Shown: piece by piece, positions 1-32,176 of the stretch
How the letters are laid out: every line of letters begins with the position of its first letter
How positions within the stretch are numbered: position 1 is the stretch's first letter
Source: a virus
Lineage: Duplodnaviria > Heunggongvirae > Uroviricota > Caudoviricetes
Direction: 5' to 3' (one strand)
Length of the DNA: 41,135 nt
IMG/VR virus record: IMGVR_UViG_2909246061_000001
Coordinates: 1-41,135 of that record
Translations under genes and position numbers: made by a program
The notes under the pieces: generated by a model
Told to the model about the DNA's origin: nothing
Database searches by the model: none
The model's input: the letters and a program-made list of their open reading frames with translations, nothing else

Positions 1-483
1 ATGTTAGTTAGTAAAAGCAACGGATTTAACGCTAGCGCAGTTTTGGGTAGTGGAAGTTATAATGAAAATAAATCTTCTAAACACATGGAGCTACTAGCTC
101 ATAGTATTTTAAAATTAATTTGTAAGGAAGCTGCATCAGAGACGTATCGCGGTGCTCTTGAAACTTTACAAAAAATGATGTCTGAATGTATATATCAAGA
201 AGGCAACGCCTTTGTCATTATGGGAGCTGGAGAACAATTAAAACGTATTAAATATGAAGTTGGTGAAAATAACTTAAAGGTATTCAACGTACACTTTAAT
301 AATAATCACGAGTTAGTTAGTTCTGGTGAGCCTGACGTAATATGTTTAAGCAAGCAGGTCTGGGAAAATCTTCTCATTAAACTAAAGCTGGAAAACAATG
401 AAAATGTGTTTTCTAAAACTAAAAAATTATCGAATAAAAATAATGCCGATCAGTTTTTTGAATGCGCTAAAAGAAATGAATAG
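1..483 (+). CDS. hypothetical AT-rich protein; start at window edge uncertain; in the same frame as 583..1374 and separated from it only by one TAG
   Basis: ORF track; low GC; frame 1 stays open from 484 to the ATG at 583, so this may be the 5' part of one disrupted gene. Confidence 0.3.
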   Translation: MLVSKSNGFNASAVLGSGSYNENKSSKHMELLAHSILKLICKEAASETYRGALETLQKMMSECIYQEGNAFVIMGAGEQLKRIKYEVGENNLKVFNVHFNNNHELVSSGEPDVICLSKQVWENLLIKLKLENNENVFSKTKKLSNKNNADQFFECAKRNE

Positions 484-582
484 AACCTTTTCGATAATAT
501 AAGAAAAAGTGATTTTCATGTTGGTTTACTTAAGCCAAGTAGTACGCGTAGTGTTATTTTAGAAACGCCGCCAAATGTCTGT

Positions 583-1374
583 ATGGAATCACGTAATTCA
601 TATGAAAACAAAATAGATGAGATTTCATCTTTGTCAGAGTCAAAGGAACACCCCATAGATATTCAAGAAAAAAAAGATGCGTTTGTGAATGAGTTCAAGG
701 GGGTATTATTTGATAAAAATACAAGGTCTTCAGAGCTTCTGTTTAATTTTTATGAGTGTTGCTATAAGTTTTTACCAAGAGCTCAGCCTCAAGATAAAAT
801 CGATAGCTATAATTCAGCACTGCAAGCTTTTTCCATTTTTTGTTCATCTACGTTGACACATAATAATATAGGCTTTGATTTCAAATTATTTCCTGAAGTC
901 AAGCTGTCTGGAGAACATCTTGAAACGGTATTCAAATACAAAAATGGCGATGATGTCCGGGAGATAGCCAAAATTAACATTACTCTCCAAAAAGAAGAGG
1001 GTGGTTTATATAATTTACGTGGATTGGATTTTAAGGGGTGCTTCTTTTCTGGACAGAACTTCAGTAACTATGATATTCAATATGTGAACTGGGGAACGTC
1101 ATTGTTTGATGTTGATACTCCGTGTATTTTTAATACGCCTGCTTACAACAAGAGTAATGAAAAATCATTAAAACCTGTGAGCGAAAACGGTTTAAGTGGA
1201 GTATTGACTGATCGTAATAATAAAATAAAACTCATCACGGGCGTGGCACCATTCGATGATATTTTATTTATGGATGATGACTTTGATGATAGTTCCTCTG
1301 AGGATGATCCCGTTGAGAATAGTCCTGTTGTGACTAGTCCCGTTGTATCAAGTTCTAAAAGCAGTTTTCAATGA
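583..1374 (+). CDS. hypothetical protein with pentapeptide-repeat-like segment (NLRGLDFKGCFFSGQNFSNYD) and acidic Ser/Pro-rich C-terminus; possibly effector-like
   Basis: ORF track; AT-rich composition; no recognisable RBS upstream, consistent with being a continuation of 1..483. Confidence 0.35.
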   Translation: MESRNSYENKIDEISSLSESKEHPIDIQEKKDAFVNEFKGVLFDKNTRSSELLFNFYECCYKFLPRAQPQDKIDSYNSALQAFSIFCSSTLTHNNIGFDFKLFPEVKLSGEHLETVFKYKNGDDVREIAKINITLQKEEGGLYNLRGLDFKGCFFSGQNFSNYDIQYVNWGTSLFDVDTPCIFNTPAYNKSNEKSLKPVSENGLSGVLTDRNNKIKLITGVAPFDDILFMDDDFDDSSSEDDPVENSPVVTSPVVSSSKSSFQ

Positions 1375-1468
1375 TTAATAAATGGCAATTTTTACAAAGA
1401 GATAATAACGTAGATTGAAACAATATGTATTATTGATTGAGTAAACGGGATTATTCTTCACACTACAT

Positions 1469-1543
1469 CCATTTTAGTGTCACTACCAAAGAAAAAGGGG
1501 CTACGTTTTCATGTAACCCCTTGATTTATTTGGTGGGCTGGCA
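1469..1543 (-). repeat. degenerate copy of the ssrA 3' flank: terminator hairpin plus about 13 nt resembling the tmRNA 3' end
   Basis: 1469..1543 aligns with 40013..40086 with a few mismatches (ccattttNNNNNcactaccaaagaaaaaggggctacgYtttcaYgtaaccccttgatttatttggtgg), then diverges. Confidence 0.6.
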
Positions 1544-1721
1544 GTGACTGAATTGGTGCTGTAATTGGTTGAAATATTTCATCTAATGTCTGGTTCAACT
1601 TTCCTTAGCTGCCTGAAAGTTTTTTGATCTTACCCAGCAATAACAGCGTTACGGTGCACCACGCCTGACTGAAGAACTGCGTGCTCAGGGTTACCACTTC
1701 AACGTAAAACCGTGGCAGGAG

Positions 1722-1900
1722 GTCCGGACTGAAAAAACTGGTCAGGACATCATCGGCAGGGAACGCACTGCTAGTCTGTAAACTGAACCGACTGGGGCGC
1801 AGTATGTGGCATCTTGTCGTGCTGTTGGAGGAGCTGTGCGAACGTGGTATTAACTTTCGTGCTCTGGCCCAATCTATATTTGCCCAACAATGGGGGGACG
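1722..1900 (+). pseudogene. internal fragment of a Pin/Hin-family DNA invertase gene, truncated at its 3' side by IS1
   Basis: translation [51 protein letters not shown] matches the intact invertase at 31610..32176 (LKKLLRTLSAGDTLVVWKLDRLGRSMRHLVTLIEELRQRGVNFRSLTDSI); N-terminal catalytic region absent; frame runs into the IS1 end at 1901. Confidence 0.55.
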
Positions 1901-1955
1901 GGTGATGCTGCCAACTTACTGATTTAGTGTATGATGGTGTTTTTGAGGTGCTCCA

Positions 1956-2231
1956 GTGGCTTCTGTTTATATCAGCTGTCCCTCCTGTTCAGCTACTGAC
2001 GGGGTGGTGCGTAACGGTAAAAGTACTGCCGGACATCAGCGCTATCTCTGCTCTCACTGCCGTAAAACATGGCAACTGCAGTTCACTTACACCGCTTCTC
2101 AACCCGGTACGCACCAGAAAATCATTGATATGGCCATGAATGGCGTTGGATGCCGGGCAACCGCCCGCATTATGGGCGTTGGCCTCAACACGATTTTCCG
2201 CCATTTAAAAAACTCAGGCCGCAGTCGGTAA
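1956..2231 (+). CDS. insA: IS1 transposition regulator InsA
   Basis: 91-aa zinc-finger protein [40 protein letters not shown] typical of IS1 InsA. Confidence 0.85.
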
Positions 2232-2653
2232 CCTCGCGCATACAGCCGGGCAGTGACGTCATCGTCTGCGCGGAAATGGACGAACAGTGGGGCTATGTCG
2301 GGGCTAAATCGCGCCAGCGCTGGCTGTTTTACGCGTATGACAGGCTCCGGAAGACGGTTGTTGCGCACGTATTCGGTGAACGCACTATGGCGACGCTGGG
2401 GCGTCTTATGAGCCTGCTGTCACCCTTTGACGTGGTGATATGGATGACGGATGGCTGGCCGCTGTATGAATCCCGCCTGAAGGGAAAGCTGCACGTAATC
2501 AGCAAGCGATATACGCAGCGAATTGAGCGGCATAACCTGAATCTGAGGCAGCACCTGGCACGGCTGGGACGGAAGTCGCTGTCGTTCTCAAAATCGGTGG
2601 AGCTGCATGACAAAGTCATCGGGCATTATCTGAACATAAAACACTATCAATAA
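2150..2653 (+). CDS. insB: IS1 InsB reading frame (expressed as InsAB' transposase by -1 frameshift at the tttaaaaaac motif near 2203..2212)
   Basis: ORF with canonical IS1 InsB sequence (…[29 protein letters not shown]…); A6C slippery run present. Confidence 0.8.
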
Positions 2654-3913
2654 GTTGGGACCATTACCCATTGGGGCATATTTATACTCGTCTATATGAC
2701 AGTTACTTTTTAAAATTTCACCCTTAAAATCCTCAATTATCTCTGAGTAAAATGATCTTAGTGCTTCATTTATTTTGAGATAGCTGTAATCATGTTCTGG
2801 CTTATAACCAATCAAAGTATATGCTCTTAAAAGACCACCAAATCGGGTTCTATAAACAGAAGATGAAGGGCCTGTATCATCTTCATCAATGATAAAGCCT
2901 GATAGTTTTCCATTAGATTCTAATTTTTGTTTTAGTTTTTCTAATAGATCTTCATTAGTCAAATGAATGGATCGGAGCTGAATTATTTCTTGAGCTTTAT
3001 TGTATTTTTTCTTTGAAATAATAGGTTTATATGCCTTGTCACATCTAACCCATTCATGTTTGGGGTTTTTTACAAGCCTACTTTTTAATTTAGATGAGGT
3101 TTTGTTATATATGTTGTTTCCAATATATTTTTCATTTGTCAAAATTTGATGTATTTTTGCACGAGTCCATAATGTTCCATTTTCTGCAGGTATGTTCTGT
3201 TCATTTAATCTCTCAGCAATAATGAATTCTGGGACGTTATTATCTATAAAGAGATCATATATTCTATTTACAATTTTTATTTCATTTTTTGGTCCCGGAA
3301 TTAATATTACCCTATCTGTTTGAATACTCTTTCTTTTGCGGAAACTCAATATTTCTTTAGCTATGCCATTTTCGTCTACTAAAAGACGTCTCAGCCCATA
3401 ACCAGCCATACCGCCTTGATGATAACCAAGCTTTATTAAATTTACTTGCCCTATAAATACCTTATCAGATAGATTCCTGCTGTGATATGCAGCACTAGAT
3501 CTTTTTATATTCAGTATAACAGAGGACTCTAAAGGGAAATCTTTAGTGGGTATAGGTTCGGAACAATATATAAGATCTACACCATTTCTCTCAAATAGAA
3601 AGGAATAATATGCCGCTTCATCACTATTTTGAAAACGACCAAAACGGCTCACATCATAAAATAATACAGCCTGTATATCTATTTTCTTTTGTTCTACATC
3701 GCTAAGTAACTGCTGCAAAGAATGCCTGCCTACGATACTGACTCCGCTCTTACCTGCATCATCGTAGGTATAAGCGATTTCCATATTGTTCTTTTCAGCA
3801 TAATCTTTGATATATTCGGACTGATTATGTAAAGAATATTGCTGATGGTCGGTAGACATCCTCAAGTACTGCGCGACCCTAACTCTATGATTTTTGTCAT
3901 TTTCGCTAGCCAT
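2588..3913 (-). CDS. large serine recombinase (resolvase-type catalytic domain plus recombinase domain); 3' end interrupted by IS1, so the last 27 codons are IS1-derived and the protein is probably non-functional
   Basis: N-terminal YLRMSTDHQ serine-recombinase motif; AT-rich; ORF crosses the IS1 right end at 2668. Confidence 0.6.
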
Positions 3914-4195
3914 GCACGAAACCTCATGGATGATTCAATACAATGTAGTGGATAAAATTGATCAAATTTCAACCGAATTCAACTGTTTTATCATTGATTA
4001 GAGCGAATTTGGTAGATCTTCGAGGTGTATGATAATCGAGAAGAGATGTGAATTATTTAGCTGATATGACCGACAGCTTTCGTTATGTGGACTCAATGTC
4101 CCCATTTGTAAATGGCTATGCTTAGTCCACATAGGTTAATGGTGTGATTATTAATTCTTTAACTAAATCAAGATAGTTAATCCATCATGGGAGAG

Positions 4196-5425
4196 TTATG
4201 CGGCAATAACTTTGCATTTTTGAGACGAAACATAGTCACTCCACCATTGCATGAGAACCACCCGTTCAGTGAGATACTCTGCACGATTGTAGGCTGCAAT
4301 TATTTCATCTTTCTTCGAGTGGGCAAGGGCGGCTTCTAAGACATCAGTCCTAAACTTGCCAGACTCCTCAGCAGCCGTTCTAGCAATGGATCGCATACCG
4401 TGAGCTACAAGCTCACCTCCGAAACCCATACGGATTATGGCCGCATTAGCTGTTTGTTCATGCATGTGATTGAGTGGAGCTTTGATACTGGGGAACACCC
4501 ACTCTCTATGCCCGCTGATGACTTTCATTAAATCCAAAACTCGCAAAGCTTCTTTGCTCAGTGGAACTTTGTGAGGCTTCTTCATTTTCATAAACTCCGC
4601 CGGGATGTTCCACATGCCAGTTTCAATATCAATATCTGACCATCTTGTGCGAACAGCTTCACCTGGGCGAACCCATGTGAGAAGTTGCCACTCAATCAGT
4701 AGCCTTGTTTCCAAACGGATAGAAGCATTGTTTAGAGCAACCAAGAAGCGAGGGAGTTCGGAAGGGGGTAATGCTGGCATATTCTGTTTTTTTGGCTTGC
4801 TGAACCGTTGCCCCAGGTTGTCTGCCGGGTTGAATTCTATGAGTTCTTCTGTTGCTGCATAGCGGAAAATTTCATTCAGGCGGGATATGATGCGGCGAAG
4901 TGTTTCAAGGACACCTCGTTTTTCTATGGGTTCTAAATGCTGTTTAAGCATTTTAGGGCGAATCTCCTTAATTGGGGTATCACCCAATGTGGAAAAGATA
5001 TTTCTCTCTAGGCTTCGCCAGATGTCGTTAGCATGATCTTGGGAGATGCCTGACGTTTTGACTTTCTCATCAAGCCACTTCTTGGCTACTGCTTGAAATG
5101 TATGTTCCGTGGCATCTTTCAGTGCATTGGCTTTTTGGTTGTTATGAACTTGGGGGTCTATACCATTTGTAAGCAACGACAAGTATTCATCACGTAAAGC
5201 TCGTGCCTTCGCAAGTGTAAGGTGAGGATAGGTTCCTAAGCTCACCTTAGTTCGCTTTTTGGTCACAGGCACTGCATATCTGAAATACCAATTTTTCTTC
5301 CCTCCCTTCGCCAGGGGAGCGATTCGCAACAGCAAACCATCGCCGTCAAAAAGGTTAACCTCTTTTTCGGCAGGTTTGGTGCTTTTGATTTCAGTGTCAG
5401 TGAGCTTCTTAGCGATTTTGGCCAT
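4196..5425 (-). CDS. tyrosine integrase, P4/CP4-57 IntA family
   Basis: N-terminus MAKIAKKLTDTEIKSTKP…DGDGLLLRI…WYFRY typical of P4-type integrases; C-terminal catalytic domain with …HGMRSIARTAAEESG… and YNRAEYLTER; probable ATG at 5425 (the track ORF extends to 5506); lies directly beside an ssrA 3'-end copy, as intA does beside ssrA in CP4-57. Confidence 0.85.
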   Translation of the reverse strand: MAKIAKKLTDTEIKSTKPAEKEVNLFDGDGLLLRIAPLAKGGKKNWYFRYAVPVTKKRTKVSLGTYPHLTLAKARALRDEYLSLLTNGIDPQVHNNQKANALKDATEHTFQAVAKKWLDEKVKTSGISQDHANDIWRSLERNIFSTLGDTPIKEIRPKMLKQHLEPIEKRGVLETLRRIISRLNEIFRYAATEELIEFNPADNLGQRFSKPKKQNMPALPPSELPRFLVALNNASIRLETRLLIEWQLLTWVRPGEAVRTRWSDIDIETGMWNIPAEFMKMKKPHKVPLSKEALRVLDLMKVISGHREWVFPSIKAPLNHMHEQTANAAIIRMGFGGELVAHGMRSIARTAAEESGKFRTDVLEAALAHSKKDEIIAAYNRAEYLTERVVLMQWWSDYVSSQKCKVIAA

Positions 5426-5522
5426 GTTTGGGACCCTCGATTTTAGGACCCATCTTCGTGGGTCCCATTCAGGGTGCCATAACTCGTAGTTCTCAGCAAT
5501 TCTCACTAGACTACAATAGACG

Positions 5523-5560
5523 TAAAAAAGCCCGCAGAGCTTGTGCTGTGCGGGCTTAGT
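5523..5560 (-). terminator. rho-independent terminator hairpin downstream (minus sense) of the ssrA 3'-end copy
   Basis: minus-strand gcccgcacagcacaagctctgcgggc followed by tttttt. Confidence 0.45.
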
Positions 5561-5587
5561 AGACTTTACTGAACTTCAGTACATCAA

Positions 5588-5636
5588 TATTTGGTGGAGC
5601 TGGCGGGAGTTGAACCCGCGTCCGAAATTCCTACAT
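5588..5636. repeat. 49-bp direct repeat identical to the ssrA 3' end; left att site of the P2-like prophage
   Basis: 5588..5636 is identical to 40072..40120 and the sequences diverge immediately outside both copies. Confidence 0.85.
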
Positions 5637-5768
5637 ACCATTTTTACTATAACAAAAACATGAACTTATGTTTAAAATCAGTGTGTTAGTATTATTTTGT
5701 GTTTGTCTGTTTTACGCATTTTTAATGCTCTGCCGCCAAAATGCCGCCACTGGTTTTGCTTGGGAGAC

Positions 5769-7289
5769 TTATTCAGGCTTTAATTTATTGATAATAGAAT
5801 CTACCATTTTAATGCCTGCCTCATTGACTATGACTGAATTGACTACTCTATCAAAATAGTCCTCTATATGGTGGGAAAATAGGAAAGCAGCACTTGATGG
5901 TTTTTTGTTCTTTTCAACTGCAGATTGCAAGACTTCATGAGGCGGAATTTTAAACCTTTTGCATGATGCAATGAGATATTCAAACTCTTCAAATGATAGA
6001 CAAAAAATATTCTCTGTAGGGATATGATAGTTATGTTTAAACTTGTCATATATCTTATTCATCTCATCTTTAGCATAAGTATTAGCTAGGATACTACCAT
6101 TGCCTAAGAAAAGGTTTTTATATGTAATGCAAATGATATATGAGTTAGCCCTGAATGGAGCTATTATTCGCTCATTAGAGTATATTTCTCGATTAACTTC
6201 GTGAGATTGTTCGATTGCTTTTAATACCGATTTCTTTATTTTTCCTGCAATATCCTCAGGGCGTAATGTTACCATGCCTTTTTGGTGTATCTCAACGCCT
6301 TTAGCATCAATGAAAATATTTGCCTCAGTATGTGGAATGAAATAATCAACTACTTTATTATCTTTAGGTAGTCGTTCTTTAAGGTATTTTTCGTTATGAA
6401 AATCAATTTCGCTTTCTTTTAGTATTAATTCCAGTGCATTTTCAAATACATTTCCAAAGCTATCCATGAACTTCTCGGCATCAGTTCTTCTTAAAAGATC
6501 ATATATGAACGTCTGTATGCTTGTTGAAGTCAGTTGTGTGTGTATCTGAAAATACTCTGAACCTTTTTTTATTAATGGTTTTTCAAGAAAAGGTGATGAT
6601 GAGTAGTATTCAAGCAAAGGTTTATCATAGGTTTTTGATTTGCAAAATGTAGATAGTTCATTGTAATTTATTGATATTGCATCAAGAAATTTCTCAATGG
6701 TATTTCTAGGAATGATGTCAAATAATATAGTAAATGTATCTACATTCATTTTTCTCACGGGATGCTCTTCTGTTATGTGAGTTATTAATATGTAAGATAG
6801 CTTAAGAAAGTCTTCGATAGATACATTCGTGATAGTAAAAAAACTTTTCTTTATTTTATGGTTTTTTTCAAGTTCTGAAAATAGAAAGACTTGTCTGCTA
6901 ATTGTGTTTAGAGCGTCAATTTTCTGGTAGATTCCTTGTTGGTATAGATTATTTCTAATGAAGAAATGCATGCCATTCTTCCTCTCAAGACCGATAGGAA
7001 TAATGTTCAAGGTTTCATAAGTTTTTTGGAAGAGTTTTATTGCTTGATTTTTATCGAGGATTTTGAATTTTTTATTCTTGCCAGTTACTGACGCAGACCA
7101 CTTTAGACATAAATTAACAATCCAAGGCATGTGTCGTAACATGTGGATATTATCTTCAAATTTTTGTAAGTTATATTGCATACAGAATTCGATAAATAAA
7201 TCAGGGGAATAACCTTGGATTTCTGAACGAATAGCATCCATTCTTAACTTTGCAACCGCATCAGATTGAATATCTAATTTTTGAATCAC
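5769..7289 (-). CDS. hypothetical 506-aa protein; AT-rich cargo gene between the prophage integrase and the left att
   Basis: long ORF with GTG start and GGAGA RBS 13 bp after the int stop; very low GC against the phage backbone; I recognise no fold; possible PD-(D/E)xK-like signature VVDYF…IFIDAKG. Confidence 0.6.
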   Translation of the reverse strand: MIQKLDIQSDAVAKLRMDAIRSEIQGYSPDLFIEFCMQYNLQKFEDNIHMLRHMPWIVNLCLKWSASVTGKNKKFKILDKNQAIKLFQKTYETLNIIPIGLERKNGMHFFIRNNLYQQGIYQKIDALNTISRQVFLFSELEKNHKIKKSFFTITNVSIEDFLKLSYILITHITEEHPVRKMNVDTFTILFDIIPRNTIEKFLDAISINYNELSTFCKSKTYDKPLLEYYSSSPFLEKPLIKKGSEYFQIHTQLTSTSIQTFIYDLLRRTDAEKFMDSFGNVFENALELILKESEIDFHNEKYLKERLPKDNKVVDYFIPHTEANIFIDAKGVEIHQKGMVTLRPEDIAGKIKKSVLKAIEQSHEVNREIYSNERIIAPFRANSYIICITYKNLFLGNGSILANTYAKDEMNKIYDKFKHNYHIPTENIFCLSFEEFEYLIASCKRFKIPPHEVLQSAVEKNKKPSSAAFLFSHHIEDYFDRVVNSVIVNEAGIKMVDSIINKLKPE

Positions 7290-7301
7290 AATAGGTCTCC
7301 A

Positions 7302-8315
7302 CTACAAATTATAAAGAGGATTTTTAGTCACCGCGTCTTCAAGGTGATCGGGCGAAAAGTGGGCGTAAATCATGGTCATTTTTATATCGGCATGACCCAA
7401 AATATCACGCAGTACCAGTATGTTTCCGCCGTTCATCATAAAGTGACTGGCGAATGTATGGCGAAGCACGTGGGTACATTGGCCCTCCGGTAGGTCAATA
7501 CCGGCCCGCTTTACTGCCCGCTCAAAGGCTTTTCTGCATGGCGTGAATAACTTTCCTCTGTTTTTGGGGAGTTCATCATACAGATCCTGAGATATCGGCA
7601 CAGTACGGTTTTTCTTGCCTTTTGTTTTTGTATAAGTAATTCGGTATTTCGATATTTGATGGCCCTGCAGATTTTCGGCTTCACTCCACCGTGCGCCAGT
7701 AGCCAGACATATTTTTGCAATCATTAGTAAGCTAGGGCTTTGAGATTCAGCACATGCCGCCAACAGGCGCTTGATTTCGTCCGTGGAAAGAAAAGCCAGC
7801 TCACCTTCGGCAATTTTGAAGGTCGGAAGTCCTGCCAGCGGGTTTGGTGCTGACCAGTGTCCTAGTTTTTTTAATGTACCGAACACAGATGATAGATTGC
7901 GCTGTTCAAGGTTTACCGTGCGGGGCTTAACGGGCGACATCAGCGTGCCATCTTCATTTCGCACTTCACCTTTTAGCCGTGCTTCGCGGTATTTCGTAAA
8001 GTCACCGGCAGTCAGCTCTGAAGCGATGGGATCGCCCAGACCATTACAGATAATTCCAAGTTTCGCCATGAGTCGCTTGGGGTCTGCGAGTGTTTGACCA
8101 TACAGGGAATACCACAGCTCAATTAATTCTGATAGGTGTCGCCGATCTTCCTTTTCTCCCAGCCAAGGTTTCTTGTTTACCTCGTCCATGGTGAAATTCT
8201 CAAACGCAATGGCTTCGCCTTTCGTCGCAAATTGTTTGCGTACGCGTTTGCCATCTCGCCCGTTTGGGTAGCATTCACATAACCACTTTCCGTTCGGCTG
8301 TTTTCTGATGGTCAT
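7302..8315 (-). CDS. int: P2/186-type tyrosine integrase
   Basis: 337 aa, same length as P2 Int; C-terminal motifs ARWSEA…HVLRHTFASHFMMNGGNILVLRDILGHADIKMTMIYAHF. Confidence 0.9.
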   Translation of the reverse strand: MTIRKQPNGKWLCECYPNGRDGKRVRKQFATKGEAIAFENFTMDEVNKKPWLGEKEDRRHLSELIELWYSLYGQTLADPKRLMAKLGIICNGLGDPIASELTAGDFTKYREARLKGEVRNEDGTLMSPVKPRTVNLEQRNLSSVFGTLKKLGHWSAPNPLAGLPTFKIAEGELAFLSTDEIKRLLAACAESQSPSLLMIAKICLATGARWSEAENLQGHQISKYRITYTKTKGKKNRTVPISQDLYDELPKNRGKLFTPCRKAFERAVKRAGIDLPEGQCTHVLRHTFASHFMMNGGNILVLRDILGHADIKMTMIYAHFSPDHLEDAVTKNPLYNL

Positions 8316-8316
8316 A

Positions 8317-8949
8317 TCAAAGGCTCTTAATGATTTTCAGTGCGCGGCCTATTACCTCAATGTCATCCAGTTCGCACTCAAACGATGAATCATCCTGATG
8401 CACTACTAATCTGTTTCCCGGGAGTCGTGTCAATTTTACAATGCTTTTTATCCCGTCGATGTCCACTAACCACGTACCATTTACTGGTGGTGTTTGGTTG
8501 CGATCTATTAAATAAGAATCACCAGAAGTAGTCACCAGCAGCAGGTTGCTTGAGTCTGAGGGGAGTATGCTGCTATCAATGATTGCTTTTCCAGCATCGA
8601 TCAGCAAACCTCCGTTGAGAGTTGCCTTGTCAATTTCAGGAGATACAAGCTCCGAAAGAGGTTTAACTTTGCTAGAGTTCACGGAATTGATATTTTTTTT
8701 AGGGTCAATGTTTGAACCTGGATCGCCCTGTCCGGTAGTTAGCCACAGTAAAGAAACTCCTGTTTCCAAAGCGCACTGAATCACCCATTCTGCAGGAAAA
8801 CTATCTCTTAAGTATCTGTTTGCCATAGTGCTTTTTGATGCGCCCAAGTGATCGCAAAGTTGCTGTCTGGACTTGAAATCATAGGCTGCCATTAGCCTAT
8901 GGATAGCCTCTCTTCCCCCTGTATTCTCGCCAGCTTTTACTTGTATCAT
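8317..8949 (-). CDS. cI: 186 CI-type immunity repressor
   Basis: N-terminal HTH plus C-terminal region with CALETGVSLLWLTTGQG and TWLVDIDGIKSIVKLTRLPGNRLVV resembling the 186 CI repressor; divergent from the early operon. Confidence 0.75.
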   Translation of the reverse strand: MIQVKAGENTGGREAIHRLMAAYDFKSRQQLCDHLGASKSTMANRYLRDSFPAEWVIQCALETGVSLLWLTTGQGDPGSNIDPKKNINSVNSSKVKPLSELVSPEIDKATLNGGLLIDAGKAIIDSSILPSDSSNLLLVTTSGDSYLIDRNQTPPVNGTWLVDIDGIKSIVKLTRLPGNRLVVHQDDSSFECELDDIEVIGRALKIIKSL

Positions 8950-8961
8950 TTTTTAATCCTG

Positions 8962-9013
8962 TTGACGTATCAAATATTGGATCGTAGTATCTTGGTGTAT
9001 CAAATATTGAATC
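8962..9013. promoter_or_regulatory. putative early promoter/operator region between cI and the rightward early operon
   Basis: two 17-bp direct repeats gtatcaaatattgRatc (8967..8983 and 8997..9013); TTGACG (8962..8967) 17 bp before TAGTAT (8985..8990) reads as a rightward promoter overlapping the first repeat. Confidence 0.35.
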
Positions 9014-10900: not shown

Positions 10901-11754
10901 GCACCATCCTGAAATGGGCGGGAAATAAAACCGCCATTATGTCCGAACTGAAAAAACACCTTCCTGCTGGCCCGCGACTGGTTGAACCTTTCGCGGGTTC
11001 CTGTGCTGTGATGATGGAGACGGATTACCCCAGCTATCTGGTTGCGGATATTAATCCTGATTTAATCAACCTCTATAAAAAGGTTGCCGCTGATTGTGAA
11101 TCGTTTATATCTCGCGCCAGAGTTTTATTTGAGATCGCAAACAGGGAGGTGGCTTATTACAACATAAGGCAGGAGTTTAATTACTCCACTGAAATTACTG
11201 ATTTCATGAAAGCGGTATATTTCCTGTATCTCAATCGTCACGGTTACCGTGGTTTATGTCGCTATAACAAGAGCGGGCATTTCAACATTCCCTACGGTAA
11301 TTATAAAAATCCGTATTTCCCTGAAAAAGAAATTCGCGCATTTGCAGAAAAAGCCCAGCGGGCAACGTTTATCTGCGCCAGCTTTGATGAAACGCTGGCG
11401 ATGTTGAAGGCGGGGGATGTGGTGTATTGCGATCCGCCGTATGACGGCACGTTTTCCGGTTATCACACTGACGGCTTCACTGAAGATGACCAGTATCACC
11501 TGGCATCCGTTCTTGAACATCGGTCATCAGAAGGACATCCGGTCATTGTTTCTAACAGTGACACATCCCTGATCCGTTCGCTGTATCGCAATTTTACTCA
11601 CCACTACATCAAGGCAAAACGCAACATCGGTGTGGCAGCTGGAGAGGGTAAATCAGCAACAGAAATCATTGCTGTTTCCGGGCCGCGCTGCTGGGTGGGA
11701 TTTGATTATTCGCGTGGCGTGGACAGTTCTGCCGTGTACGGAGTACGTGCATGA
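10897..11754 (+). CDS. dam: DNA adenine methyltransferase (Dam-like, orphan)
   Basis: N-terminal ILKWAGNK…EPFAGSCAV AdoMet-binding motif and DPPY catalytic motif; no partner endonuclease nearby. Confidence 0.85.
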
Positions 11755-14165
11755 GTCATGCCGATATGAACAACTGCTGCGGCTTTAACGAGGCTGCCGC
11801 AGCATTCTCATGGAACAGCCCGAAAAAGGCCATTAACCCTTATCTGGACCCGGCGGAAGTTGCGCCGGTTTCTGCGCTTTCAAACCTGATCACTCTGTAC
11901 GCTGCCGATAACGAGCAGGAACAACTGCGCCGCGAGGCACTGAGTGATCAGGTCTGGGAGCGTTATTTCTTTAATGAATCCCGTGATCCTGTCCAGCGCG
12001 AAATGGAGCAGGATAAGCTAATTAGCCGGGCAAAGCTGGCGCATGAGCAGCAGCGTTTTAATCCAGACATGGTCATTCTGGCGGATGTCAACGCCCAGCC
12101 TTCCCATATCAGCAAGCCGCTGATGCAACGTATTAAATACTTCAGCAACCTGGGCAGGCCAAAGGCTTATTCCCGCTATTTGCGTGAGACGATTAAGCCA
12201 TGCCTGGAACGACTGGAGCATGTACGCGACAGCCAGCTATCTGCATCTTTTCGTTTTATGGCAAGCCATGAAGGGCTGGACGGTCTGCTGATCCTGCCTG
12301 AAATGAGTCAGGATCAGGTGAAACGCCTGTCCACCCTTGTCGCTGCGCATATGAGCATGTGTCTTGATGCCGCTTGTGGTGATTTGTACGCCTCCGATGA
12401 TGTTAAGCCGGAAGAAATCCGCAAGACATGGGAAAAGGTGGCAGCAGAAACCCTGCGACTGGATGTCATACCGCCTGCGTTTGAGCAACTCCGCCGGAAA
12501 AGAAACCGCCGCAAACCTGTGCCCTATGAACTCATTCCGGGTTCGCTGGCGCGTATGCTGTGCGCCGACTGGTGGTATCGAAAATTATGGAAGATGCGTT
12601 GCGAATGGCGGGAAGAGCAGTTGCGTGCTGTCTGTCTGGTCAGCAAAAAAGCATCTCCCTATGTCAGCTATGAAGCCGTGATGCATAAACGTGAGCAGCG
12701 CCGTAAGTCGCTGGAGTTTTTCCGTTCTCATGAACTGGTGAACGAAGACGGCGACACGCTGGACATGGAGGATGTGGTAAACGCCAGCAGCAGCAACCCT
12801 GCGCATCGCCGCAATGAGATGATGGCCTGTGTTAAAGGCCTGGAGCTTATCGCGGAAATGCGCGGTGACTGCGCCGTTTTCTACACCATCACCTGTCCGT
12901 CACGTTTCCATTCCACGCTAAATAACGGCAGGCCCAACCCGACCTGGACAAATGCGACGGTAAGACAAAGCAGTGATTATCTGGTTGGCATGTTTGCTGC
13001 ATTTCGTAAGGCGATGCACAAAGCCGGATTGCGCTGGTATGGCGTGCGGGTGGCTGAGCCGCATCATGACGGTACAGTTCACTGGCACCTGTTGTGTTTT
13101 ATGCGCAAAAAAGATCGCCGCGCCATTACTGCTTTGTTGCGTAAGTTTGCCATTCGTGAAGACCGCGAGGAGCTGGGGAATAACACGGGACCACGCTTTA
13201 AGTCTGAGTTGATTAACCCGCGCAAAGGAACGCCGACAAGCTACATCGCGAAATATATCAGTAAGAACATTGACGGGCGTGGTCTGGCTGGCGAGATCAG
13301 CAAGGAAACGGGTAAATCCCTGCGTGATAACGCTGAATACGTGAATGCCTGGGCGTCTCTGCATCGTGTTCAGCAATTCCGCTTCTTTGGCATTCCGGGG
13401 CGTCAGGCTTACCGTGAACTGCGATTGCTGGCTGGTCAGGCGGCAAGGCAACAGGGTGACAAAAAAGCAGGTGCGCCGGTACTGGATAACCCGCGCCTTG
13501 ATGCAATCCTGGCTGCTGCTGATGCTGGTTGTTTTGCCACCTACATCATGAAGCAGGGCGGCGTACTGGTTCCCCGTAAATATCACCTCATCAGAACTGC
13601 TTATGAAATCAACGAAGAGCCGACCGCCTATGGCGATCACGGCATTCGTATTTATGGCATCTGGTCACCTATTGCAGAGGGCAAGATCTGCACTCATGCC
13701 GTGAAGTGGAAAATGGTTCGTAAGGCCGTTGACGTTCAGGAGGCGGCAGCCGACCAGGGCGCTTGCGCCCCTTGGACTCGTGGCAATAACTGTCCCCTTG
13801 CTGAAAATTTGAACCAACAAGGGAAAGACAAATCAGCTGATGGGGATACCAGAACGGACATTACCCGCATGGATGACAAGGAGTTGCACGAATACCTGCA
13901 CAGTATGAGCAAAAAAGAGCGCCGGGAACTGGCTGCAAGGTTACGCCTGGTGAAACCGAAACGGCGTAAAGACTACAAACAGCGAATTACAGACCATCAG
14001 CGACAGCAGCTCGTCTATGAACTGAAGTCCAGAGGATTTGATGGCAGCGAGAAAGAGGTCGATTTACTCCTTCGCGGCGGCAGTATTCCGTCAGGAGCAG
14101 GCCTGCGTATCTTCTATCGGAACCAGCGTTTGCAGGAAGATGATAAGTGGCGGAACCTGTATTAA
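11751..14165 (+). CDS. A: P2 gpA-type replication initiation endonuclease
   Basis: 804 aa; HUH-type motif VHWHLLCF and catalytic Tyr region [12 protein letters not shown]. Confidence 0.9.
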
Positions 14166-14909: not shown

Positions 14910-15335
14910 CTACTTAATTGAGTCCAGTAACAAGTTACAGTTACTCTCATTGTAGAGAGAACGAGCAATTAGTGTTACCTGCTTTCCATTCATTCCCGGC
15001 TTATCCCATAACACAGCTTCTTGCGACGCCACAAATTCAGCATAATCAATTATGCGTTGTTCGTGATCTGGTTCCTCATAGCCAAAGTATGAGAGCGCAT
15101 CGTTGTAAGCGTGGTAAGCTGCTTTCTGTAATATCTTGATATCGGCTGTAGGTACTTGCTCCGTGTAGCTAGGATCTAATTGTGTGCTACTGCCATAGAA
15201 TGCACATGAAAGGTAAGATATTGATTTCTGTTGAGCTTTAGTTCCTTTCTCATAGTTTTTAGCTGTTACCGCCTGAACTGGGACGCTAACAAAGCTTGCA
15301 ACCAGAATTAAAATTAATACGTAAAAGCTTTTCAT
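14910..15335 (-). CDS. small secreted protein of unknown function (141 aa, signal peptide)
   Basis: N-terminus MKSFYVLILILVASFVSVPVQA with probable cleavage after VQA; AT-rich; opposite strand to neighbours; on the A side of cos. Confidence 0.55.
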   Translation of the reverse strand: MKSFYVLILILVASFVSVPVQAVTAKNYEKGTKAQQKSISYLSCAFYGSSTQLDPSYTEQVPTADIKILQKAAYHAYNDALSYFGYEEPDHEQRIIDYAEFVASQEAVLWDKPGMNGKQVTLIARSLYNESNCNLLLDSIK

Positions 15336-15697: not shown

Positions 15698-15763
15698 GCG
15701 CGCTTATTACTTTGATAGTACTCGGGTTATAATATGGATGACTATCTATCTCGGAGAATGTAC

Positions 15764-17416
15764 ATGTCATTAGACTATATTAAAGAACAGTTGTCAGACT
15801 TTATTTCATCTGCAGAACCTGAGGTAATGGCTATTCAGGGTGAGTGGGGGATTGGGAAAACCTATACTTGGAATGCTTTCTTAAAGGAAAATAAAAATAA
15901 GATTGCATTTAATAGATATAGTTACGTCTCTCTTTTTGGTGTTAATTCATTGGACGCATTAAAATACTCCATCTTTGAAAATACAATTACGAAAGATTTC
16001 ATTGGAAACAAACCTAATTTAAAAACAGCAACACAAAATGCAAAGGGGCTTCTTGAATCCTGCACTAGAAAGACCGCTCGTGTGTTAAAAGATACACCTT
16101 TTTTGAAAAATTTCACTACGACACTTGAGTCAATGTCATTTATGTCAATTACTAATGTTATTGTAGTCATAGATGACTTAGAAAGACGTGGTAAAAATTT
16201 AGAAGTGAAAGATGTCTTAGGGTTGGTTTCTTTATTGAAAGAACAAAAAAATTGTAAGGTGGTTCTTTTACTTAATAACGGGACAAGTGGTATGGATGAC
16301 TACTCCACTTATAAAGAAAAGGTTATTGATAGAGAGATTACCTATAATCCTACTCCAGAAGAATGTGCAGTTATAGCATATAAAAATAATTCTGATGTTC
16401 ATAAATTATTAAGCAAATACTCCATTTCCCTGGGTATTAAGAATATTAGGATACTGAAAAAAATAGAGCGGTTTTTGCTAGCCTTGTTACCTGGCATTAA
16501 CGTTAATTTTGAAAAAATTGCAAATGAAGTCGCACACTCCTTAACTTTGTATTGTTGGAGTCATTACGCATTTACTCCAGATGGAGATGTACCATCATTG
16601 GAGTATATTAGAAATATGAGAAATATCTATATGCGTGATGAAAAAGAGGATGGAAAAGAAAAAAAATGGCTTAATACTTTGCTTATATATGATTATAAAA
16701 AAACAAACGAACTTGATGAAGTCCTTATAGACATGGTAAAGCATGGATATATTGATATGAACAATTTCCAAAGGCAAGTAAGTCTAAGGAATGATGAACT
16801 TATCCGTGATAGTAAGCGAGGTTCACTGTTTGAAGCATGGAAGCTTTTCTATAATTCATTTGAAGATAACCGAAATCAGGTTATTGATAATCTATATCAA
16901 GCGGTGGTTGGTGGGATAGAGTATGTAACTCCAAGTGACTTGGATAGTGTTGTCGGACTGTATAGAGATTTAGGTGAAAATATTCAAGCAAGTGAATTAA
17001 TAAGTAAATTTATTAATTACGGCAATGATGCTCTTAAGGAATATGTTCAATCTATTTACATGAATGTTCATCCTATAAAAGATGCTGAGTTAAAGTCAAA
17101 AATCCAAGATTATTCTACTACTTTAAATCTGGATGGTTCTATAAAGGATGTTCTAATAAAATTATCAAGTCAGAATGGTTGGTCTGATAGGCACGAGGAA
17201 ATATTGGATGCTGCCTCAGAGGATGACTACTATGATTTATTTAAAAAAGTCATTCTTGATGGTGGTGATTCAATAATAGCTACTGCTCTTAAGTTTGGTG
17301 GGTATAGCAATGGTTCAGAAAGAATGAAACGCATCGGAGAAAAAGCGAGAAATGCTTTGATAAGAATTGGAAATGAGTCGAGCATTAATAAAATACGTGT
17401 TAGACGGTATTTGTAA
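15764..17416 (+). CDS. KAP-family P-loop NTPase-like protein (551 aa from the ATG at 15764); candidate anti-phage cargo
   Basis: Walker A GEWGIGKT (15839..15862) and Walker B VIVVIDDLER (about 16160..16186) in KAP-type spacing; GGAG RBS before ATG 15764; perfect TATAAT at 15728..15733; AT-rich; followed by a terminator hairpin. Confidence 0.7.
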   Translation: MSLDYIKEQLSDFISSAEPEVMAIQGEWGIGKTYTWNAFLKENKNKIAFNRYSYVSLFGVNSLDALKYSIFENTITKDFIGNKPNLKTATQNAKGLLESCTRKTARVLKDTPFLKNFTTTLESMSFMSITNVIVVIDDLERRGKNLEVKDVLGLVSLLKEQKNCKVVLLLNNGTSGMDDYSTYKEKVIDREITYNPTPEECAVIAYKNNSDVHKLLSKYSISLGIKNIRILKKIERFLLALLPGINVNFEKIANEVAHSLTLYCWSHYAFTPDGDVPSLEYIRNMRNIYMRDEKEDGKEKKWLNTLLIYDYKKTNELDEVLIDMVKHGYIDMNNFQRQVSLRNDELIRDSKRGSLFEAWKLFYNSFEDNRNQVIDNLYQAVVGGIEYVTPSDLDSVVGLYRDLGENIQASELISKFINYGNDALKEYVQSIYMNVHPIKDAELKSKIQDYSTTLNLDGSIKDVLIKLSSQNGWSDRHEEILDAASEDDYYDLFKKVILDGGDSIIATALKFGGYSNGSERMKRIGEKARNALIRIGNESSINKIRVRRYL

Positions 17417-17452: not shown

Positions 17453-18481
17453 CTAATTCAATGAATAATCTTTGAAGGCTATTATTTTTTTCTTTAGCCA
17501 AATATTAATTTCTACAAGTCTTTTTTGTAAAGGAGTTAACTCATTTCGCACAAAAACGCAACTGGCTTTTTCTATATCCCCAACCCCCCCAACATTGTTT
17601 GGCATTATCCCCATCATCTGCGGCGGCACACGATGCGCCGCCATCATGTCATCCCGACTTACGTTCTTGATGTTAAGAAATTCATCCTTCGCCGCGACTT
17701 CTGACAATGGGATGATCTGAAGCCCGTCTTTTTTGCCGTTAGGCGAGTACATAAACAGGTTGCGGAAGTTGCCTGGACCTTTGGCACTTTTCATCGCGTT
17801 GCGGAGGTTGTTCACATCCTCCTGATTCTGCGCGGCGTCGGTCATGTACATGATGAAGCCTGCATGGCTGCCGTTGATGTAATACTTACGGCGGAACAGC
17901 GTGGCGGACTCGTTGAGCAGGGCGGATGGAATGGCAGAAAGATAGCCGGGCAGGCCGTAGATCTCCTGGTTGATGTCCGGTTCCATCAGATGAAAAATGC
18001 TGCCTTTCGTGAACTGATACGGCTGGGTTGTCATACCGTATTGCACAAACCAGTAGGTATCCAGGTCTAACCCACGTCGGGTGTATTTTGCCAGAGCAGG
18101 CTCAAGGGCGATAACTTCACCGAACCGGTTCGTGCGTTTCTCCAGGTAAGCGTTACCAAATACCAGATAGTCCTGCACAAAACGTGAAAAAGCCTGCTGG
18201 CTGAGAAGCGGGTGAGGGATGTAGGTACTGGTCAGAATGTTGCATTTCACCGCAATTGGTGAACTGTGATGCACGGCAGCGCGGAAGGTTCGCGCCAGTC
18301 CGTCAAAACTCACTGGCGGCTCATACCAGCGATCTGTCTGTACGCATTCTACATAGTCCAGCAGTTCGCGGCGGTCCAGAACAGGAACGGGATCGCCAAA
18401 GCTGAATGCTTCGGCTGAAGTCTGGCTTTTGTGCTGAATCTGGTTCGTCGACACAGCGCGGTTCTTCTTACTCTTTCCCAT
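17453..18481 (-). CDS. Q: portal protein (P2 gpQ)
   Basis: about 342 aa, same size and position as P2 Q; ATG at 18481 overlaps the P stop. Confidence 0.9.
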   Translation of the reverse strand: MGKSKKNRAVSTNQIQHKSQTSAEAFSFGDPVPVLDRRELLDYVECVQTDRWYEPPVSFDGLARTFRAAVHHSSPIAVKCNILTSTYIPHPLLSQQAFSRFVQDYLVFGNAYLEKRTNRFGEVIALEPALAKYTRRGLDLDTYWFVQYGMTTQPYQFTKGSIFHLMEPDINQEIYGLPGYLSAIPSALLNESATLFRRKYYINGSHAGFIMYMTDAAQNQEDVNNLRNAMKSAKGPGNFRNLFMYSPNGKKDGLQIIPLSEVAAKDEFLNIKNVSRDDMMAAHRVPPQMMGIMPNNVGGVGDIEKASCVFVRNELTPLQKRLVEINIWLKKKIIAFKDYSLN

Positions 18482-20247
18482 CAAAAAATCTCCACAATAT
18501 TGCTGGTATTGGCGGACTCGCCCTGCAGCGGTTCGTTAAACAGTGCGTGCATTGTTGCCCACGCCAGATCGGCATGGCTGGCTTCTTCGCTGCGGCTGGC
18601 TTCATAGGTCGGGCGGTTGCCGCTGGCGGTGGTGGCGCGACGGATTGCCATAAATGACTGCGCTATGTCGGTGTGTCCGGCGTCAAACTCCAGACGGCGG
18701 TGGCTGATAATGTCGTAGGCCTTGAGTACCAGGGCGTTTTTAACGTTGGGGTTGTAGACAAACTCCCGGACGGCAGGAAAGAACGCTTTTACGTTCTCAT
18801 AAACCCCGTGACCGACACCTGTCGAGTCGATACCGATATAGGTCACGTTGTACTGTTCAGTCAGTTTTTTGATGGCGTCCGCCTGGGCACGGAAGTCCAT
18901 CCCGCGCCACTGGTGACGCTCAAGAATGCGGAACTTACCGCCCGGCACGGCTGGCGGAGCCACCACCACGCACCCGGCGCTGTCGCCGTTTTGCGTACCT
19001 TTTGCCGGGTCATAACCGATCCACACTTCGCGCCAGCCAAACGGGCGCAGGGCCAGTGCATGAAAGTCGGTCCAGACTTCCCAGCTGTCCACCATGCAGG
19101 CCTGCAGCTCGCTGAGCGGGAACACGGACGCGAGATCGTCCACGAATTCACACATCAGCAGGTTCTGGTATTCGTCCGGGCTGTATTCCATGCGCAACTG
19201 GTCAAGGTCGAACAGGTTACAGCCGCCGCGAACCGCATCTTCCACGGTGACTATCTGGCGGTATTGCCCGTCTGCACACAGCAGGCCTGGAGCCAGATTG
19301 CTGTGGGACAGGTCTATGTCCACCTTGTCGGCTTTATTGCGCCCACGGTTGAATAGCGCACCGGACCAGAACGGATAAGCACTGTGTGTCAGGCTGGATG
19401 GCGTGGAAAAATAGGTTTGTCGCCATTTTTTGTGAATAGCCATACCGGAAGCCACTTTGCGCAGCTCCTGGAATTTCGGTATCCAGAAATATTCATCCAG
19501 ATACAGGTTGCCGTGGTAACTCTGGGCCGTGCGGGCATTGGTGCCGAGGAAATACAGTGTGGCCCCGTTGGGAAGCACCATCGGATCGCCTTTCAGCTCC
19601 ACTTCCACTTCTTTGGCGAAGTCGATGATGTACTGCTTAAAGACGTGGGCCTGTGCCTTGCTGGCGGAAAGGAAAATCTGGTTACGTCCGGTCAGCAGGG
19701 CGTCAATCAGGGCTTCACGGGCAAAGTAAAAGGTCGCGCCGATCTGGCGTGACTTCAGCAGGTTGCGGATGCGGTTGGTTTTTCCGGCTTCCCACCAGTG
19801 GCGCTGGTAGTTGAACATGGAGGAATGGAAGATTTCTTCCAGCTTCTCAATCTGTTCATCGGTGAAGACATTTTTTTCCGGCTGACGGCGCGGGCCTTTG
19901 TTGCGGTTGGCGACGTTAGGGTTTAAGTCGGCTTCGTTGCCGCCATTGTTAAACTTGCCGATCCGCGCGTGGCGCTCAGACTGGCGCGCCAGCAGGTCAA
20001 TCTCTTTGAAATCTTTCCCTTCTTTGTGCTCCTTCATAATGAGCTGGCAGTAGCGTGCGGCGGTGGTGAGCTGCATCTGATCCAGTGGCCCATAGTCACC
20101 CCACTTGTCGCGTTTTTTCCAGCTGTGAACGGTTGCAACTTTCTCGCCCAGCATTTCAGCAATGCGGGCTACGCGGTATCCCTGAAAGTACAGCAGCATG
20201 GCCTGCCGACGGGGATCGAGATCTGCGGGTGTCAGTGTGGTGTTCAT
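18481..20247 (-). CDS. P: terminase large (ATPase) subunit (P2 gpP)
   Basis: 588 aa; typical P2 P order directly upstream of Q. Confidence 0.9.
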   Translation of the reverse strand: MNTTLTPADLDPRRQAMLLYFQGYRVARIAEMLGEKVATVHSWKKRDKWGDYGPLDQMQLTTAARYCQLIMKEHKEGKDFKEIDLLARQSERHARIGKFNNGGNEADLNPNVANRNKGPRRQPEKNVFTDEQIEKLEEIFHSSMFNYQRHWWEAGKTNRIRNLLKSRQIGATFYFAREALIDALLTGRNQIFLSASKAQAHVFKQYIIDFAKEVEVELKGDPMVLPNGATLYFLGTNARTAQSYHGNLYLDEYFWIPKFQELRKVASGMAIHKKWRQTYFSTPSSLTHSAYPFWSGALFNRGRNKADKVDIDLSHSNLAPGLLCADGQYRQIVTVEDAVRGGCNLFDLDQLRMEYSPDEYQNLLMCEFVDDLASVFPLSELQACMVDSWEVWTDFHALALRPFGWREVWIGYDPAKGTQNGDSAGCVVVAPPAVPGGKFRILERHQWRGMDFRAQADAIKKLTEQYNVTYIGIDSTGVGHGVYENVKAFFPAVREFVYNPNVKNALVLKAYDIISHRRLEFDAGHTDIAQSFMAIRRATTASGNRPTYEASRSEEASHADLAWATMHALFNEPLQGESANTSNIVEIF

Positions 20248-30241: not shown

Positions 30242-30847
30242 ATGATGAATAAAGCTGTATTAAATAGCGAACTCATTGCCATAAAAGCGGGAGACATTAT
30301 CATTTATAATTATGATGGTGAAACGCGGGAATATATTTCTACATCAACTGAATATCTCGCTGTCGGCGTCGGTATCCCGGCATGTTCCTGTTTGGATGCA
30401 CCAGGTATACATAAAGCTGGTTATGCAATCTGTCGCTCTGTAGATTTAAATTCATGGGAATATGTGCCAGACCATCGCGGTGAAGTTGTCTATAGTACCG
30501 AAACGGGAGATACCAGAGAAATCACAGTTCCGGGTGATTACCCTGAAAATACAACCACTATCGCCCCATTAACGCCATACGATAAATGGGATGGTGAGAA
30601 ATGGGTGACCGATACTGAGGCACAGCATAGCGCCGCAGTAGAAGCGGCAGAAGCACAGCGCCAGTCACTGATTGATGCAGCAATGGCTTCCATTAGTCTG
30701 ATTCAGCTGAAATTACAGGCCGGGCGGAAACTGACGCAGGCAGAAACAACCCGGCTTAACGCTGTGCTGGATTACATTGACGCGGTGACGGCAACAGATC
30801 CCAGCACCGCGCCGGATGTCATCTGGCCTGAACTGCCGGAGGCGTAG
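30242..30847 (+). CDS. tail fibre assembly protein (Tfa, P2 gpG-like)
   Basis: C-terminal …[14 protein letters not shown] typical of Tfa; start overlaps the restored end of H. Confidence 0.8.
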
Positions 30848-31247
30848 GCCATTCAATATCGGGTGCTGTTGAAGTATCAACACGCATCAGCAGCACTCGG
30901 TATTTCTTCCATTCGGTGAGAGTTGAAGTTTCTTCATCAGTTGCGATATCAGCATCAACAGCATCCTGACGCCAGGATATTTCACTGTCAGCTTTTTCCC
31001 GTAATTGGGATTTTTTAACTTCAGCAATAGCTATTAATTCCTTTTGGGTCGGCTGAGGAATATCTATCAGTGCTGGTTTTCCATTCAGTGTTCCAATCTG
31101 TTTTCCTGGTGGAATATCCATAAATAACTTTTTATGTTCTTCCTCACTGACTATTACACCATCATCAGGCCACAGACCTGATGCCTCAAATTTTTCTTTC
31201 TCCGATATGGGGAAAAAGCCATTTGCTTTAGCGCTCCATACGTACAT
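30819..31247 (-). CDS. alternative tail fibre assembly protein (Tfa') in the invertible segment
   Basis: opposite strand; C-terminal …[14 protein letters not shown] typical of Tfa. Confidence 0.75.
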
Positions 31248-31554: not shown

Positions 31555-31609
31555 TGCAGAGATAACGGCTAACTGGCATCATCCCCGGTTTTTATTCAGG
31601 GGATTGATC

Positions 31610-32176
31610 ATGCTTATTGGCTATGTACGCGTGTCAACAAATGACCAGAACACCGATTTGCAACGTAATGCACTGAACTGCGCGGGATGTGAGCGGATTT
31701 TTGAGGACAAAATCAGTGGCACTAAGTCCGACAGACCGGGACTGAAAAAACTGCTCAGGACATTATCGGCAGGTGACACTCTGGTTGTCTGGAAGCTGGA
31801 CAGGTTGGGGCGCAGTATGCGGCATCTCGTTACGCTGATAGAAGAGCTGCGCCAGCGTGGCGTGAATTTCCGAAGCCTGACTGACAGTATTGATACCAGT
31901 ACCCCAATGGGCCGTTTCTTTTTTCATGTCATGGGTGCCTTGGCTGAAATGGAACGCGAACTGATAGTTGAACGTACCAGGGCGGGGATTGCTGCAGCTC
32001 GCGACAAAGGCAGAGTAGGTGGACGCCGTCCTAAGTTGACCACCGAACAGTGGGCACAGATTGGACGTTTACTAGAGGCCGGAGAATCAAGACAGCGTAT
32101 TGCACTGATTTTTGATGTGGGCGTTTCTACCATTTATAGAAAATTTCCGGCAAATAAGAGCAGTGAATCCCCCTGA
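31610..32176 (+). CDS. site-specific DNA invertase, Hin/Gin/Cin/Pin family serine recombinase
   Basis: MLIGYVRVSTNDQNTDLQRNAL…VVWKLDRLGRSMRHL…C-terminal HTH; nearly identical N-terminus to e14 Pin. Confidence 0.9.
   Translation: MLIGYVRVSTNDQNTDLQRNALNCAGCERIFEDKISGTKSDRPGLKKLLRTLSAGDTLVVWKLDRLGRSMRHLVTLIEELRQRGVNFRSLTDSIDTSTPMGRFFFHVMGALAEMERELIVERTRAGIAAARDKGRVGGRRPKLTTEQWAQIGRLLEAGESRQRIALIFDVGVSTIYRKFPANKSSESP

Follow-up and report, generated by a model that had tools for sequence, protein, structure and literature searches.

The window analyzed here, the 41,135-nucleotide viral record IMGVR_UViG_2909246061_000001, carries an open reading frame for a 506-aa protein on the minus strand at positions 5769–7289 (GTG start, TAA stop), referred to below as gapS1. 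Directly upstream of it on the same strand lies the gene for a prophage tyrosine integrase (int, 7302–8315), preceded by the gene for a CI repressor (8317–8949), which is the first gene of the leftward (lysogenic) operon. Read directly from the minus strand, the int stop codon TAG (7304–7302) is followed by a GGAGA ribosome-binding site (7300–7296), a 6-nt spacer, and the gapS1 GTG (7289–7287), leaving a gap of 12 nt between int and gapS1. The initial annotation, made from the sequence without database searches, had described a 506-aa ORF coupled to int on the same strand and provided with its own GGAGA ribosome-binding site, and these points were borne out. The gene model draws on the ORF list, NCBIfam, and RefSeq, and the RefSeq model of this gene in E. 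coli E308 has the same boundaries. A shorter gapS1 starting at M17, where the tested WP_152927281.1 construct begins, was considered and dropped: residues 1–16 are conserved among homologs, the first helix of the predicted structure (residues 10–24) spans M17, and the GTG has a good ribosome-binding site.

An exact 49-bp direct repeat is present at 5588–5636 and 40072–40120. The int-proximal copy is a displaced copy of the ssrA 3′-end, and the second copy lies within intact ssrA, where it is the 3′-end of the tmRNA gene (40076–40438). Because this att repeat pair marks the prophage ends and the second copy belongs to an intact tmRNA gene, the element is a 34.5-kb 186/P2-like prophage inserted in ssrA, with gapS1 inside it. 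The gene is 132 nt from the int-proximal att copy, in agreement with its earlier placement next to attL. The elements at ssrA are arranged in tandem, with the 186-like prophage followed by a CP4-57-like island (window positions 1–5587). This island contains a P4-type integrase gene beyond the att copy (4196–5506, minus strand), a serine recombinase gene (2588–3913, minus strand) that is truncated by IS1 (about 1956–2653), and AT-rich ypjC-type genes. Assignment of gapS1 to the island was rejected because the att repeat at 5588–5636 lies beyond the gene.

Database searches placed the 506-aa protein in a known family. It matched the NCBIfam model NF047931 (antiphage_GapS1) at E = 3e-128, scoring 428.5 bits where the curated cutoff is 320, through ORF residues 20–474 and over the full profile (positions 1–455 of 455). 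In addition, a 2.9-kb region of the window has an exact counterpart (100% identity) in E. coli E308 (NZ_CP030281.1), and RefSeq already names the identical gene there gapS1 (WP_118393788.1). The protein also matched phrog_14259, a PHROGs family without an assigned function. A Pfam search returned no domain, with just a sub-threshold TPD match, and a search of PADLOC-DB v2 (2023) returned no match; these two resources are uninformative for the GapS1 family. Judged by its sequence, the 506-aa protein is a full-length member of the GapS1 family. The gene had previously been called an orphan of no recognized family, which is incorrect in light of the NF047931 match above cutoff and the RefSeq name.

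GAPS1 was named from the Gamma-Mobile-Trio island of V. parahaemolyticus, with WP_005477165.1 as its prototype (Mahata et al., bioRxiv 10.1101/2023.03.28.534373). The prototype consists of one protein whose C-terminal region is of the PD-(D/E)xK type, and the substitutions D313A and K328A abolish its defense against T7. T7 mutants that escape the prototype have mutations in the capsid protein Gp10, and production of Gp10 alone causes cells containing the Vibrio prototype, the one protein for which this was reported, to stop growing without being killed. The outcome of activation was reversible dormancy, as measured on the Vibrio prototype and other homologs. The E. coli homologs tested were EJP5250929.1, WP_152927281.1, EGQ2075554.1, and WP_194242909.1; three E. 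coli homologs were cloned, expressed, and found to protect against coliphages in assays of plating efficiency. When the endogenous homolog of E. coli ZH142-A, WP_194242909.1 (GY639_RS21140), was deleted, protection against phage Bas21 was lost, and this natural homolog caused growth arrest at high multiplicity of infection (all from bioRxiv 10.1101/2023.03.28.534373).

Several of these tested proteins can be tied closely to the gene in the window. The 506-aa protein is 58% identical over 504 residues to the tested EJP5250929.1 (P0210). From Table S3 of the paper, the N-terminal 126 residues of the tested WP_152927281.1 were translated; they are identical at 126 of 126 positions to P0004, a cluster that is 77% identical overall to the present protein and occupies the same prophage slot; the same fragment matches the present ORF at 107 of 125 positions, beginning at M17 of the ORF. 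The allele studied here is thus 58–77% identical to the comparable tested E. coli proteins. Moreover, the 50-nt homology arm of TM644F, a primer for deletion of gaps1 from ZH142-A, is exactly identical to window positions 5719–5768. This match directly abuts the gapS1 stop codon, and 19 of its bases (5750–5768) are specific to the cassette that contains gapS1. The 50-mer was absent from the eight other related slot loci compared, and its only match was to L001, the E308 copy of the same region. The comparison with ZH142-A is based on the downstream arm, since Table S5 prints the same sequence for TM644F and TM644R. Because the arm is identical, including the cassette-specific bases, the gene that was knocked out in ZH142-A very probably sits in the same cassette as the present gapS1, with which it shares a 3′-flank.

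The initial annotation had pointed to a segment of the protein with the spacing of a PD-(D/E)xK nuclease as a resemblance at the level of the motif. In an alignment of 24 homologs with 28–78% identity, E283, E300, D315, D328, K330, and E333 are invariant, and three of these (D315, D328, and K330) are held by the peptide VVDYFIPHTEANIFIDAKG, residues 313–331. The active-site stretch itself, D315...D328-A-K330, is encoded by positions 6300–6347 (minus strand). The corresponding segment of the prototype was rebuilt from the published mutagenesis primers and aligned to the ORF. The two segments, KVV-D313-FLHQRNGTSIFIDA-K328-GVE in the prototype and KVV-D315-YFIPHTEANIFIDA-K330-GVE in the present protein, align residue for residue; the distance from Asp to Lys is 15 residues in both, and they have the core KVVD...IFIDAKGVE in common. 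By this alignment, the motif picked out from the raw sequence is the GapS1 catalytic site that was validated in the prototype.

An AlphaFold2 model built from the alignment (pLDDT 88.7, pTM 0.88) consists of a helical N-terminal part and a C-terminal α/β core, with a β-sheet core at residues 298–432. From its secondary structure, the protein was divided into a mostly helical N-terminal region (about residues 1–270; 6480–7289, minus strand), the presumed sensor, and a C-terminal PD-(D/E)xK nuclease-like region (about residues 271–506; 5772–6479, minus strand). In the model, D315 is directly before one strand and D328 and K330 are on the next, so that a core resembling that of restriction endonucleases is predicted to carry the D...(D/E)xK residues. 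The structures that matched the model were restriction-endonuclease folds, with the anti-phage nuclease Upx (PDB 9wuf) as the best match; the closest folds include type II restriction enzymes and nickases, and Holliday-junction resolvases were matched weakly (Foldseek). No relative of the 506-aa protein came up when PDB sequences were searched with a profile, so the evidence for the fold rests on the predicted model. Structure and profile searches, which had been suggested earlier as a check on the protein, returned the GapS1 anti-phage family and a restriction-endonuclease fold.

The position of gapS1 within the prophage was analyzed by comparison with related phages. The GC content of gapS1 is 31.4% (GC3, 27.8%), compared with 47.7% for int, 43.9% for cI, and 51.4% for the remaining prophage; at the scan size used, only two stretches of the prophage fall below 40% GC, gapS1 and a region at about 14.7–18.1 kb. 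Homology to phages Cartapus, RE2010, and SEN8 extends over 5588–5749 (86–88% identity), breaks at 5749, and picks up at 7300–7315, at the int stop codon. From these breaks and a comparison of the junctions in ten loci, a variable cargo cassette was defined at 5750–7299, between the int stop codon and a conserved att-proximal arm (5637–5749; 86–88% identical to other 186-like phages). The flanks of this slot are 83–88% identical across loci, and the cargo is varied and unrelated. It is empty in SEN8 and contains a gene for a 401-aa protein in Cartapus, RE2010, and E. coli LF82, a GapS1 homolog (48.6% identical) in Klebsiella phage ST437-OXA245phi4.1, a 418-aa protein in E. coli Ecol_316, an HNH endonuclease in E. 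coli MARGA_3, a 327-aa protein in E. coli 442/2, and a 229-aa protein in E. coli CUPF12. Within the loci compared, these cargo genes lie at L002:2669–3874 (401 aa), L006:712–1968 (418 aa), L009:714–1697 (327 aa), and L010:683–1372 (229 aa). At all loci compared, the GC content of the cargo genes is 0.31–0.35 versus 0.44–0.49 for int. These results agree with the earlier proposal that gapS1 is AT-rich relative to the phage backbone and was acquired later, as one occupant of a swappable AT-rich cassette.

The cargo starts −4 to +40 nt from the int stop codon in every locus compared except CUPF12, where the gene for the 229-aa protein begins 539 nt after it. At the other edge, every one of these cargo genes stops immediately ahead of two conserved TGGCGRCA repeats spaced by 11 nt; in the window these are the two TGGCGGCA repeats of the att-proximal arm, at 5731–5738 and 5742–5749, directly after the cassette, and they are conserved in all loci compared. 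The TGGCGGCA pair marks the fixed downstream edge of the att-int slot. Judging from the attP layout of phage 186, these repeats probably act in attP as Int arm-type or Apl sites. The att-int slot was described in 2026 as a minor P2 defense hotspot (PMC13586616).

The arrangement of these genes also bears on how gapS1 might be expressed. A terminator scan of the minus strand from cI to past the att copy found none before a terminator-like hairpin at 5542–5528, the first one past gapS1, which lies beyond the att copy. Since the copied ssrA 3′-end immediately precedes it, this hairpin would appear to be the old ssrA terminator. A promoter scan gave 14 matches compared with 10.1 ± 3.4 expected, which is no excess over chance. 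In sister phages, cargo genes overlap int by 4 nt, and in phage 186 int is on a leftward transcript downstream of cI, with an int-lacZ fusion reporting leftward transcription (PMC7708051). Given the 12-nt spacing, the lack of an intervening terminator, the overlaps in sister phages, and the phage 186 layout, cotranscription of gapS1 with cI and int in the lysogen is the most economical reading, and we consider it plausible by analogy.

The GapS1 family is large. In a library clustered at 50% identity, a profile built from the 24 homologs retrieved 1549 cluster representatives with E ≤ 0.001, of which 632 had E ≤ 1e-30. The present protein falls into a 90%-identity cluster of 285 member sequences, and a variant that differs at one residue is found on at least 1000 contigs of Enterobacteriaceae. 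Fifteen E. coli genomes carry the intact ORF with a DNA identity of at least 99.7%, and a near-identical gene is present in Klebsiella phages (99.9% at the DNA and 99.4% at the protein level); a Klebsiella prophage copy was flagged as GAPS1-like earlier, in the Phold preprint. Among 5426 complete E. coli genomes, a related integrase was found in 250 and the present cassette in 15–17 of these. Homologs with 77 and 50% identity have the same gene order, cI-int-gapS1, at different host sites, and the homologs confirmed in the att-int slot are 49–77% identical to the present protein (28–78% for all aligned homologs). A Photobacterium homolog with 31% identity is located in a non-phage island, where it adjoins AAA_15/AAA_21 ATPase genes.

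Based on the above results, together with those published on relatives, we consider it highly likely that this locus encodes a GapS1 defense protein that the lysogen produces and that, on recognizing a protein of an incoming phage, arrests growth through its PD-(D/E)xK site. In this proposal, gapS1, whose family, genomic position, and cassette nature are documented here, would be single-gene cargo of the att-int slot, produced in the lysogen from the leftward cI-int transcript. The single GapS1 polypeptide would sense a protein of the infecting phage, which in the prototype is the T7 major capsid protein. Sensing would switch on the C-terminal PD-(D/E)xK phosphodiesterase, for which the intact active site and predicted nuclease fold speak and in which D315, D328, and K330 would be catalytic. 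The resulting growth arrest would leave the cycle of the infecting phage incomplete, and the lysogen population and its prophage would be protected. Anti-phage activity, the capsid trigger, and dormancy are carried over from published work on relatives. For the present protein, we infer its expression from the cI-int transcript, its substrate, and the sensor role of the N-terminal region, the last of these taken from the discussion in Mahata et al. A superinfection-exclusion or abortive-infection role had been suggested in the initial annotation; a phage-exclusion role fits the GapS1 anti-phage family, with the qualification that the published outcome on relatives is reversible dormancy rather than cell death.

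GapS1 might instead cut the DNA of the invader directly, as a restriction enzyme does, and clear the phage without arresting growth of the host. The type II restriction enzymes and nickases among the closest folds of the model would fit such an activity, and Mahata et al. allow for possible phage elimination by GAPS1 (bioRxiv 10.1101/2023.03.28.534373). We regard direct cutting as unlikely, however, because in the prototype the capsid protein by itself, in the absence of any phage DNA, arrests growth, high multiplicity of infection leads to growth arrest with the natural E. coli homolog as well, and the slot contains no methyltransferase or other partner for self-protection. Even less probable is a function in the phage life cycle, as a nuclease that partners the integrase in recombination or excision. 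The tight coupling of gapS1 to int, its location adjoining att, and the use of a PD-(D/E)xK fold by Holliday-junction resolvases, to which the model has its weak matches, are compatible with such a partnership, but the empty slot of SEN8, the unrelated genes found there in other relatives, and the restriction of the cassette to a small minority of the E. coli genomes with a related integrase all argue against it, as do the 31%-identical homolog in a non-phage island and the prototype in a Vibrio Gamma-Mobile-Trio island. A selfish role for gapS1 as an addiction toxin, or its decay as a passenger without current function, is equally improbable. Its foreign, AT-rich composition and lack of a Pfam domain might suggest as much, but Klebsiella phages and 15 E. 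coli genomes have the ORF intact and near-identical, its catalytic residues do not vary among homologs down to 28% identity, and three E. coli homologs could be cloned and assayed, with toxicity that blocked testing reported only for GAPS3, GAPS5, and GAPS8.

The present protein can be compared with several known defense systems. Within GAPS1, the present protein shares with the prototype its single chain of ∼500 residues, its C-terminal PD-(D/E)xK region, and its active-site spacing, and it differs in that the prototype is in a Vibrio island, whereas the present gene is the sole gene of a cassette in a 186-like prophage. CapRel(SJ46), a fused toxin-antitoxin encoded by a prophage, reportedly senses the major capsid protein (Zhang et al., Nature, 2022). 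It would resemble GapS1 in that a prophage encodes one polypeptide which the capsid protein of an invading phage activates; its effector is a tRNA pyrophosphokinase rather than a nuclease, and it is not known to be homologous to GapS1. In Upx, one anti-phage protein of 1212 residues combines two PD-(D/E)xK nuclease domains and responds to phage terminase (PMC13099982, PMC13601566). Its sequence identity to the present protein is 10–12%, no sequence-level relationship between the two was detected in the profile search of PDB sequences, and its trigger is terminase or gp16 versus capsid for GAPS1.

The locus also resembles P2 old/tin and the P2-like hotspots, where the cargo is likewise borne by a prophage, AT-rich, and exchangeable and protects the lysogen against phages (PMC9122126; PMC13586616). 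The classical hotspot of this kind is between gpA and gpQ, a position that a gene for a KAP NTPase would occupy in the present prophage, whereas the att-int slot carries single genes coupled to int. This second AT-rich cargo region (GC about 0.32–0.40; 15734–17416, plus strand, and 14910–15335, minus strand) sits between a replication gene (11751–14165) and an ORF at 17453–18484 (minus strand). Besides a 141-aa ORF without a family, it contains the gene for a 560-aa KAP-family P-loop NTPase with a match to the PADLOC candidate PDC-S49 (E = 2e-25). If the ORF at 17453–18484 is taken as a putative gpQ, this region would be the classical P2 gpA-gpQ hotspot.

The present locus was already known at three levels, namely the family, the gene annotation, and the hotspot. 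Its value as a discovery is small, since earlier publications cover the GapS1 family with its role against phages and its active site, as well as prophage locations of this type; the locus is of use for calibration, as a motif guessed from raw sequence proved by alignment to be the true active site of a validated defense family. In 186-like prophages, the slot that immediately follows the int stop codon houses single-gene cargo, and several uncharacterized proteins encoded there would be suitable candidates for defense screens. Unlike the HNH endonuclease, the slot proteins of 401, 418, 327, and 229 aa had no match in NCBIfam, PADLOC, or Pfam, and their genes are candidates for undescribed defense genes. 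The 401-aa protein is labeled "RES protein" in phage Cartapus, without support from Pfam. It is conceivable, though we would tend to doubt it, that enterobacterial GapS1 proteins have diversified in this slot so as to spare the capsid of the carrier while sensing those of its competitors, and that the other slot genes are likewise undescribed single-protein defense systems.

Three further features of the prophage were noted. A 160-aa ORF (39470–39952, minus strand) just inside the ssrA-proximal att repeat is weakly similar to the C-terminal part of the DEDDh exonuclease model and to the PADLOC candidate PDC-S48, and its counterpart in Cartapus is labeled "putative exonuclease." At 31604–32176 (plus strand), a gene for a Hin/Gin-type serine invertase (Resolvase and HTH_7) adjoins a tail-fiber assembly gene on the opposite strand (30819–31247, minus strand), which suggests that the prophage has an invertible tail-fiber switch for host range. 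Finally, between cI and a rightward apl-like gene there are two direct repeats of 22 nt at 8962–9013 (TTGACGTATCAAATATTGGATC and TTGGTGTATCAAATATTGAATC, 30 nt apart), which are probably CI operators over the lytic promoter.
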